From Methanosphaera sp. (GTDB lineage: Archaea; Methanobacteriota; Methanobacteria; Methanobacteriales; Methanobacteriaceae), in NCBI GenBank assembly GCA_045639105.1, contig JAZUCJ010000022.1:46032-78031 (forward strand): a DNA stretch of 32,000 nucleotides, read 5' to 3'. Positions within the stretch are counted from its first letter, which is position 1; each line of letters begins with the position of its first letter. Made by a program: the position numbers and the translations under genes. The notes under the pieces were generated by a model. The model searched no databases. It saw only the letters and a list, made by a program, of their open reading frames with translations, and was not told the DNA's origin. This document shows, in pieces, positions 14,867-14,931 of the stretch.

Positions 14867-14931
14867 AATAGCCTCAGTTCGCCCATCATTCATCATCAGT
14901 TCAGAGCTCATAGGGTTCATCATTGGCTATT
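14867..14931 (-). ncRNA. Box C/D sRNA (2'-O-methylation guide)
   Basis: The minus strand reads AAUAGCC-A-AUGAUGA(C)-ACCCUAUGAGCU(12)-CUGA(D')-ACUG-AUGAUGA(C')-AUGAUGGGCGAA(12)-CUGA(D)-GGCUAUU. The terminal 7-mers are perfectly complementary and extend to 9 bp. It is intergenic, about 30 nt downstream of the pan stop. Confidence 0.88.

Follow-up and report, generated by a model that had tools for sequence, protein, structure and literature searches.

A 32,000-nucleotide stretch of Methanosphaera sp. contig JAZUCJ010000022.1 (assembly GCA_045639105.1, positions 46,032 to 78,031 of the forward strand; hereafter the window) contains, on its minus strand and directly downstream of pan, the gene of the proteasome-activating nucleotidase PAN, an element with the layout of an archaeal box C/D small RNA (sRNA). 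Our comparison of this site with its counterparts in other Methanobacteriaceae shows that the element is a conserved structured RNA and not a chance motif. We regard it as probable, from sequence comparison, that it is a genuine archaeal box C/D sRNA with two working guides, the D' guide being directed to C34 of tRNA-Met and the D guide to C2558 of 23S rRNA. An original prediction, made from the letters of the window, had already proposed a canonical box C/D sRNA here, and that identity is supported by all sequence features, by the presence of the element at 14/14 pan loci and by compensatory changes in its terminal stem.

Architecture and conservation of the element

Read base by base within 14700-15100, the minus strand from 14933 to 14865 spells out a complete box C/D sRNA layout (Table 1). 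As is usual for archaeal C/D sRNAs, box C lies near the 5' end, box D near the 3' end, boxes D' and C' are 4 nt apart, and both guide spacers are exactly 12 nt, a length found in 14/14 homologs as well. The minimum-free-energy fold closes the element with a terminal stem of 9 bp (z = -3.1).

A relaxed regular expression for the order C/D'/C'/D matched one site only on both strands of the 32-kb window. At gathering thresholds, Rfam reported only two tRNA-Gly genes in the whole window. These stand in tandem at 28345-28514 on the plus strand, with anticodons GCC and UCC, 18 nt apart. In E-value mode the whole window gave, beyond this pair, four archaeal C/D families, all at the sRNA site and all below their gathering scores. 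The best matches were sR1 (36.3 bits, window-wide E 7.7e-6, gathering score 45), sR2 (33.5 bits, gathering score 42) and snoPyro_CD (31.4 bits, gathering score 45); sR49, RF01303, scored 23.3 bits (gathering score 50).

The alignment on which conservation was judged comprises 14 distinct Methanobacteriaceae loci. Orthologous pan loci were obtained by exact-protein look-up, and seven more came from a metagenome scan aimed at rRNA. Every examined locus that contains the 3' end of pan has the sRNA directly 3' of the pan stop (14/14 distinct loci), and these include Methanosphaera, Methanothermobacter thermautotrophicus and ten other Methanobacteriaceae loci. The PAN protein of the window is 98-85% identical to Methanosphaera proteins and ~70% identical to that of M. 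thermautotrophicus, which places the window in Methanosphaera; identities in the set reach down to ~64%. Across this range the UGAUGA of box C, box D', box C' and box D are invariant, together with 11/12 positions of the D' guide and the 10 central positions of the D guide. The D' guide is identical in 13/14 homologs; in the remaining one (L060, ~4300-4365) its last base is A and not U (ACCCUAUGAGCA), as in Methanocaldococcus jannaschii. In the D guide, A or C stands beside box C' and A, U or G beside box D. Outside the terminal stem the sequence diverges fast among homologs. The stem itself shows double-sided changes at 5/8 pairs across the 14 homologs, one of which (L062, ~4400-4470) has changed GCC/GGC to GUC/GAC and thereby replaced an otherwise invariant C-G pair by U-A. 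Stem cells of the alignment are paired in 87.5% of cases versus 34-55% when the partner strand is slid, and 0/500 shuffles match the covariation score.

Chance resemblance in AT-rich intergenic DNA could draw on the half units (box C, spacer, CUGA), which arise about 0.2 times per shuffled window. The full C/D'/C'/D architecture, in contrast, was found in 0/300 dinucleotide-preserving shuffles of the window, and this result, with the conservation and covariation across genera, effectively refutes such an origin.

Much of the original prediction thus stands. Its minus-strand string, boxes and 12-nt spacers were reproduced exactly, the extension of the stem to 9 bp was borne out by the fold, and the statement that the window holds no second such element agrees with both the regular expression and the Rfam E-value scan. 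Of the checks that it had proposed, the examination of box conservation gave invariant boxes and a covarying stem among the 14 Methanobacteriaceae loci, and the scan with covariance models matched archaeal C/D families at the site, all of them below their gathering scores.

A candidate guide for C34 of tRNA-Met

The D' guide most likely directs the formation of 2'-O-methylcytidine at position 34 (Cm34) of elongator pre-tRNA-Met, as judged from published guides. Its sequence, ACCCUAUGAGCU, agrees at 12/12 positions with the tRNA-Met Cm34 guide of M. thermautotrophicus (Grosjean et al. 2008, Additional file 5) and fits the consensus RCCCUAUGAG(Y)N of the 17 archaea listed there. That study (PMC2584109) described a stand-alone C/D sRNA, first proposed for Pyrococcus sR49, which guides Cm34 of intron-containing pre-tRNA-Met; the target is given in Additional file 5 as 5'-CACU-Cm-AUAggg, with guides aligned from 17 archaea, and the main text speaks of 18 candidates. 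Since part of the intron is engaged in the pairing, methylation must precede splicing (PMC2584109). The tRNA-Met of Methanothermobacter has an intron (PMC3087415), and for haloarchaea the formation of Cm34 by the sR-tMet ribonucleoprotein is established (PMC4033218). The target implied by the D' guide of the window, AGCUCAUA|GGGU (the bar standing for the exon-intron junction), would extend from the anticodon loop of elongator pre-tRNA-Met into the intron. The anticodon CAU occupies positions 5-7 of this target, and the N+5 nucleotide, which is the one opposite guide base five as counted upstream from box D', is therefore the wobble C34.

Several searches for targets of the D' guide gave negative results. 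In a Methanobacteriaceae rRNA operon it had no credible target, its best match being 8/10. ARAGORN with intron detection returned no tRNA-Met gene from ~600 kb of Methanobacteriaceae loci, scans of viral contigs for the tRNA-Met target gave nothing or chance matches in GC-rich contigs, and a text search of the literature for the target string retrieved unrelated papers only.

The alignment also bears on the published architecture of the M. thermautotrophicus guide. In the M. thermautotrophicus strain that we read (L004, 11215-11300), what the model of Grosjean et al. 2008 takes for box C (GUGAUGU), together with the first part of the adjoining spacer, coincides with the C-terminal codons of pan (..GVMFG*), and CUUA stands in place of its D' box; the model has no terminal stem. 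The conserved architecture begins 30 nt further downstream and has the layout GGCC-U-GUGAUGA-ACCCUAUGAGCU-CUGA-GAAG-UGAUGA-CUGAUGGGCGAU-CUGA-GGCU, with the tRNA-Met guide in the C-D' half, as in 14/14 Methanobacteriaceae loci, and not directly upstream of box D. We propose this layout as a correction of the published one; for Methanobacteriaceae it appears to be new.

A candidate guide for helix 92 of 23S rRNA

Methanobacteriaceae rRNA operons were located in a metagenome collection with the 16S probe for this family, MB1174, as anchor (52 loci). An archaeal-type 23S reading GGGGUUGUUCGCCCAUUAAAGGGG lies ~3.5 kb from the probe site in 27/52 of them, and these 27 Methanobacteriaceae sequences read GUUGUUCGCCCAUUAAAG at the site with which the D guide pairs. 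Three further loci (L022, L033, L035) have an exact MB1174 match and a bacterial-type 23S at the A-loop region (GAACGTCGTGAGACAGTTYGG); the probe may lack full specificity, or else these contigs are chimeric.

This site, in helix 92 of 23S rRNA, is the single best D-guide match in a complete Methanobacteriaceae rRNA operon. The D guide of the window forms 11 consecutive pairs with UUCGCCCAUUA (Escherichia coli 2554-2564), 10 of them Watson-Crick and one G.U, and its invariant core UGAUGGGCGA is paired at 10/10 positions with UCGCCCAUUA (E. coli 2555-2564), by nine Watson-Crick pairs and one G.U; the duplex energy is about -17.1 kcal/mol. The N+5 nucleotide is C2558 (numbering against E. coli rrlH), on the 3' strand of helix 92 just below the A-loop and in a Watson-Crick G-C pair. 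Only the ten central bases of the D guide are invariant while those flanking them vary, as would be predicted for a duplex of exactly ten base pairs.

The same 23S nucleotide comes up in the sRNAs catalogued by Dennis et al. 2015 (PMC4644070), where the A-loop and helix 92 are described as a hot spot of methylation in all domains. Methanopyrus kandleri sR64 has the D guide AUAGUGGGCGAG, with 23S C2832 as its predicted target. In the alignment of that study U2826 corresponds to E. coli U2552 and C2830 to C2556, and C2832 is therefore E. coli C2558. Methanococcus maripaludis C5 sR106 (position 418406), which is highly expressed (RNA-seq coverage 255,854), has the D guide AAGAUGGGCGAG and is entered as 'NP' (no prediction) for both guides; expression of related guides is reported for M. 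kandleri as well. The D guide of sR106 pairs with 23S UUCGCCCAUU by eight Watson-Crick pairs plus G.U pairing, which places C2558 at N+5; no prediction was scored under the rule of that study, by which a target needs at least 9 consecutive Watson-Crick pairs. The 23S rRNAs of M. kandleri and M. maripaludis both read UUCGCCCAUUAA at the site, and it is this archaeal sequence that pairs with the D guide via G.U.

Taken on its own the 23S match is suggestive and not decisive, a 10-bp match with one wobble being of modest statistical weight. Together with the pattern of conservation, it leads us to propose that the D guide most likely directs methylation of C2558 beside the A-loop.

Two candidates were rejected. 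A scan of genome contigs for an exact complement of the D guide in the 23S A-loop region (TTCGCCCATCAT..GAGCTGGGTT) matched two bacteria only and no archaeal species representative. In these, a Pirellula metagenome-assembled genome (L002, 3153-3185) and Candidatus Lucifugimonas marina (L003, 6328-6358), the 23S rRNA reads UUCGCCCAUCAU, the exact D-guide complement, on the 3' side of the A-loop. The idea that both guides act on one pre-tRNA-Met, the D target lying in the intron or T arm, was dropped, the bulge-helix-bulge geometry being unfit for the exact complement of the D guide, UCGCCCAUCA. We also observed a near-tandem repeat, AUGAUGA AUGAUGG, made up of box C' and the first bases of the D guide (window 14878-14896, minus strand). 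Most homologs have it, and it may be a trace of the origin of the guide or may simply be demanded by pairing to 23S ..CAUUA.

With regard to targets, the N+5 arithmetic of the original prediction was right for both guides, and for the D' guide it lands on C34 of the published tRNA-Met guide target. The exact complement that it had given for the D guide did not hold for 23S rRNA, where the match has one G.U. The search of rRNA that it had called for gave a candidate target, with that wobble, for the D guide at helix 92 and no credible one for the D' guide.

Genomic setting and biogenesis

The coordinates of the element and of its neighbours are collected in Table 1. Sequence and Pfam analysis agree with the surroundings first described for it, namely the T6 run at 14941-14946, TATAATTA across the pan stop, the flanking cbiJ and pan genes, and a spacer of ~30 nt between the pan stop and the sRNA.

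Table 1. Features of the sRNA element and its surroundings in the window.
Feature	Coordinates	Strand	Evidence or remark
pan (proteasome-activating nucleotidase)	14964..16187	-	Pfam: AAA, proteasomal ATPase OB domain, AAA lid
AT-rich box TATAATTA	14972-14965	-	overlaps the pan stop codon
pan stop codon	14966-14964	-	upstream gene, same strand as the sRNA
T6 run	14941..14946	-	between pan stop and sRNA; possible leaky archaeal terminator of pan
Terminal stem, 5' arm AAAAUAGCC	14925..14933	-	pairs with 14865-14873 in the minimum-free-energy fold
Single spacer A between 5' stem arm and box C		-	sequence reading
Box C AUGAUGA	14917..14923	-	sequence; UGAUGA invariant in 14 homologs, first base A or G
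D' guide ACCCUAUGAGCU (12 nt)	14905..14916	-	antisense to AGCUCAUA|GGGU; N+5 nucleotide C34
Box D' CUGA	14901..14904	-	sequence; invariant in 14 homologs
D'-C' linker ACUG (loop of the internal kink-loop)	14897..14900	-	variable sequence, 3-5 nt in homologs
Box C' AUGAUGA, core UGAUGA	14890..14896	-	sequence; UGAUGA invariant in 14 homologs
D guide AUGAUGGGCGAA (12 nt), core UGAUGGGCGA	14878..14889	-	antisense to 23S UUCGCCCAUUA; N+5 nucleotide C2558
Box D CUGA	14874..14877	-	sequence; invariant in 14 homologs
Terminal stem, 3' arm GGCUAUUUU	14865..14873	-	fold and stem covariation
T5 run	14844..14848	-	downstream of sRNA; probable terminator of the pan-sRNA transcript
cbiJ	14054-14830	+	convergent with pan

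The probable host transcript of the sRNA is that of pan. In M. thermautotrophicus and L008-type loci the spacer between the pan stop and the sRNA is 10-15 nt without a T-run; such spacers leave no space for an intergenic promoter and therefore favour co-transcription with pan followed by processing as the usual mode, an arrangement described as common among archaeal sRNAs in a review (PMC7994747). Three loci (L006, L061, L062) have pan-sRNA spacers longer than that of the window, with AT-rich boxes. In the genome of the window, read-through of pan past a leaky terminator and transcription from a promoter of its own are both possible. An oligo-T run lies within ~0-30 nt 3' of the sRNA in most of the 14 homologs, and the U run in the 3' stem arm may be a first termination signal too.

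The constancy of this position raises the question of a function in cis, in which an L7Ae-binding kink-turn (K-turn) or a terminator hairpin in the 3' untranslated region (UTR) of pan would mainly control the stability or expression of pan mRNA. The site is fixed directly 3' of pan in every locus, U runs follow the stem, and translational control in archaea by L7Ae bound to K-turns of mRNAs has been suggested (PMC5539422). We nevertheless hold such a role to be very improbable as the main one. Neither a terminator nor a bare K-turn needs two invariant 12-nt single-stranded segments across genera, the occurrence of an identical tRNA-Met guide in other archaeal orders, at sites in their genomes that are unrelated to this one, would be left unexplained, and in M. 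maripaludis the same two guides are carried by separate, independently expressed sRNAs.

The gene downstream of the sRNA in L061 encodes a Zip transporter instead of CbiJ, and the linkage of the sRNA is therefore to pan and not to cbiJ. In the window, the neighbouring Mur-ligase genes, which we interpret as serving pseudomurein synthesis, are consistent with Methanobacteriales. Seven metagenomic loci of Methanobacteriaceae (L008, L034, L036, L037, L038, L047, L055) have the pan-sRNA pair ~2.7 kb upstream of a 16S-23S operon in the same orientation, and the stretch in between encodes a bPH_2 protein and an RNA methyltransferase of the THUMP/UPF0020 type; in L038, for example, pan is at 30-1163, the sRNA at ~1170-1235 and 16S begins at ~3980. 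The window has no rRNA near its pan-sRNA pair.

Discussion

In the mechanism that we favour, the gene would give rise to a minus-strand RNA of ~60-65 nt directly downstream of pan, which would usually be excised from the pan 3' UTR; in Methanosphaera, with its T6 run and AT-rich box, a promoter of its own is possible. The covarying terminal stem unites boxes C and D. By analogy with the established biochemistry of small ribonucleoproteins, L7Ae would bind the K-turn of C/D and the kink-loop of C'/D', a Nop5 dimer would bridge them, and each of two fibrillarin copies would add a methyl group to the 2'-OH of the target nucleotide that faces guide base five, as counted upstream from D' or D. The D' guide would pair with elongator pre-tRNA-Met over the exon-intron junction and lead to Cm34 before splicing, while the D guide would pair with 23S 2555-2564 and lead to methylation of C2558, presumably while the pre-rRNA is nascent and helix 92 still open.

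A number of points weigh against this reading. The expression of the RNA and both methylations in this Methanosphaera are predictions, and the tRNA-Met target is deduced from identity to published guides. Fibrillarin, Nop5 and L7Ae are near-universal in archaea, and for this Methanosphaera genome they are assumed. No Rfam C/D family attains its gathering score at the sRNA site, although this shortfall says little about class membership since these families are modelled on lineage-specific guides. For the D guide, there is a conserved G.U pair inside the duplex with 23S rRNA, such a match has a chance rate of 1-4% (1.2% of 5000 shuffled cores, 3.7% of random 10-mers), the equivalent sR106 guide of M. 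maripaludis is without a prediction under the rule of Dennis et al., and the exact complement UCGCCCAUCA might occur in another RNA.

The G.U pair, the chance rate and the missing sR106 prediction also speak for an alternative in which the RNA is a genuine C/D sRNA of which only the D' guide methylates, the D guide being an orphan, a guide for some other RNA with UCGCCCAUCA, or a structural or chaperone element. The tRNA-targeting sRNAs of Pyrobaculum usually have a target-less second guide (PMC7994747), and in the sR49/sR-tMet family the second guide differs from one order to another. We judge this alternative to be unlikely, on three grounds: the 10-nt core stays constant among 14 loci with PAN identities down to ~64% while the adjoining bases vary; the same core recurs in sR106 and, wobble shifted, in sR64, whose predicted target is this very 23S nucleotide; and an exact complement is absent from ~600 kb of Methanobacteriaceae DNA save the antisense strand of the sRNA gene. 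Two working guides, to tRNA-Met C34 and 23S C2558, therefore remain the reading that we prefer.

The element fills a gap in the non-coding RNA annotation of Methanosphaera and other Methanobacteriaceae from gut and rumen, at a site where pipelines that rely on Rfam return nothing, and it may belong to a very small number of stand-alone C/D guides in Methanobacteriaceae genomes. It offers a clean natural case of guide reshuffling, the same two guides sharing an RNA in one order and being carried by separate RNAs in another, and it leads to the prediction of two specific 2'-O-methylations, tRNA-Met Cm34 and 23S Cm2558, for organisms in which few guides are known. M. thermautotrophicus now has a reported genetic system, with shuttle vectors, and both methylation predictions are therefore testable there. 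That a tRNA guide and an rRNA guide reside on one RNA fixed 3' of pan appears to be new, the mechanism being known, and the assignment of a target to the previously target-less sR106 guide, which is plausible from the pairing, likewise appears to be new. We would put forward only as a speculation, and one more doubtful than the target assignments, that two guides which are separate in Methanococcales were fused in Methanobacteriaceae and fixed in the pan 3' UTR, coupling PAN expression to modification of the tRNA-Met wobble position and of the A-site helix.

The closest counterparts of the D guide are found in sR64 and sR106, whose D guides share their core with the Methanosphaera guide, (A/C)UGAUGGGCGA(A/U/G), with a shifted wobble in M. 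kandleri. Like them, the Methanosphaera RNA has a D guide of the form ...GGGCGA(N) that pairs with UUCGCCCAUUAA and places C2558 at N+5. The D' partners differ: that of sR64 is directed to 23S C2807, that of sR106 (ACGGAGUAGCUU) is without a predicted target, and that of the Methanosphaera RNA is the tRNA-Met guide. Those organisms carry their tRNA-Met guide on a separate sRNA, which in M. maripaludis is sR102 (guide ACCGUAUGAGCU), whereas in Methanobacteriaceae both guides are on one RNA.

The D' guide has its counterparts in sR49 of Pyrococcus (RF01303) and sR-tMet of Haloferax and other haloarchaea, a family which also takes in the M. thermautotrophicus, M. jannaschii and Methanosarcina entries of Grosjean et al. 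2008 and M. maripaludis sR102. All share the antisense element RCCCUAUGAG(Y)N, with C34 at N+5 and pairing over the junction, and all of them, like the Methanosphaera RNA, are stand-alone genes, none intron-encoded. Two differences set the Methanobacteriaceae RNA apart: the tRNA-Met guide is the D guide in published lists and the D' guide here, and the second guide, variable in the sR49/sR-tMet family, is conserved here and has an rRNA match. The shared antisense element supports placing the Methanosphaera RNA functionally with the sR49/sR-tMet guides, although the position of the guide and the Rfam sR49 score depart from that family.

Beyond archaea, SNORD97 and SCARNA97 of humans (Vitali and Kiss 2019, cited in PMC7994747) are likewise box C/D ribonucleoproteins which 2'-O-methylate the wobble cytidine C34 of elongator tRNA-Met. 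They are set apart as a eukaryotic small nucleolar RNA and small Cajal body-specific RNA, with no pairing across an intron and no rRNA guide on the same RNA. A last parallel is the C/D guide encoded in the intron of archaeal pre-tRNA-Trp, which likewise methylates C34, and also U39, of an intron-containing pre-tRNA before splicing; that guide, however, sits in the intron of its own substrate, whereas the Methanosphaera RNA is a separate gene 3' of pan.

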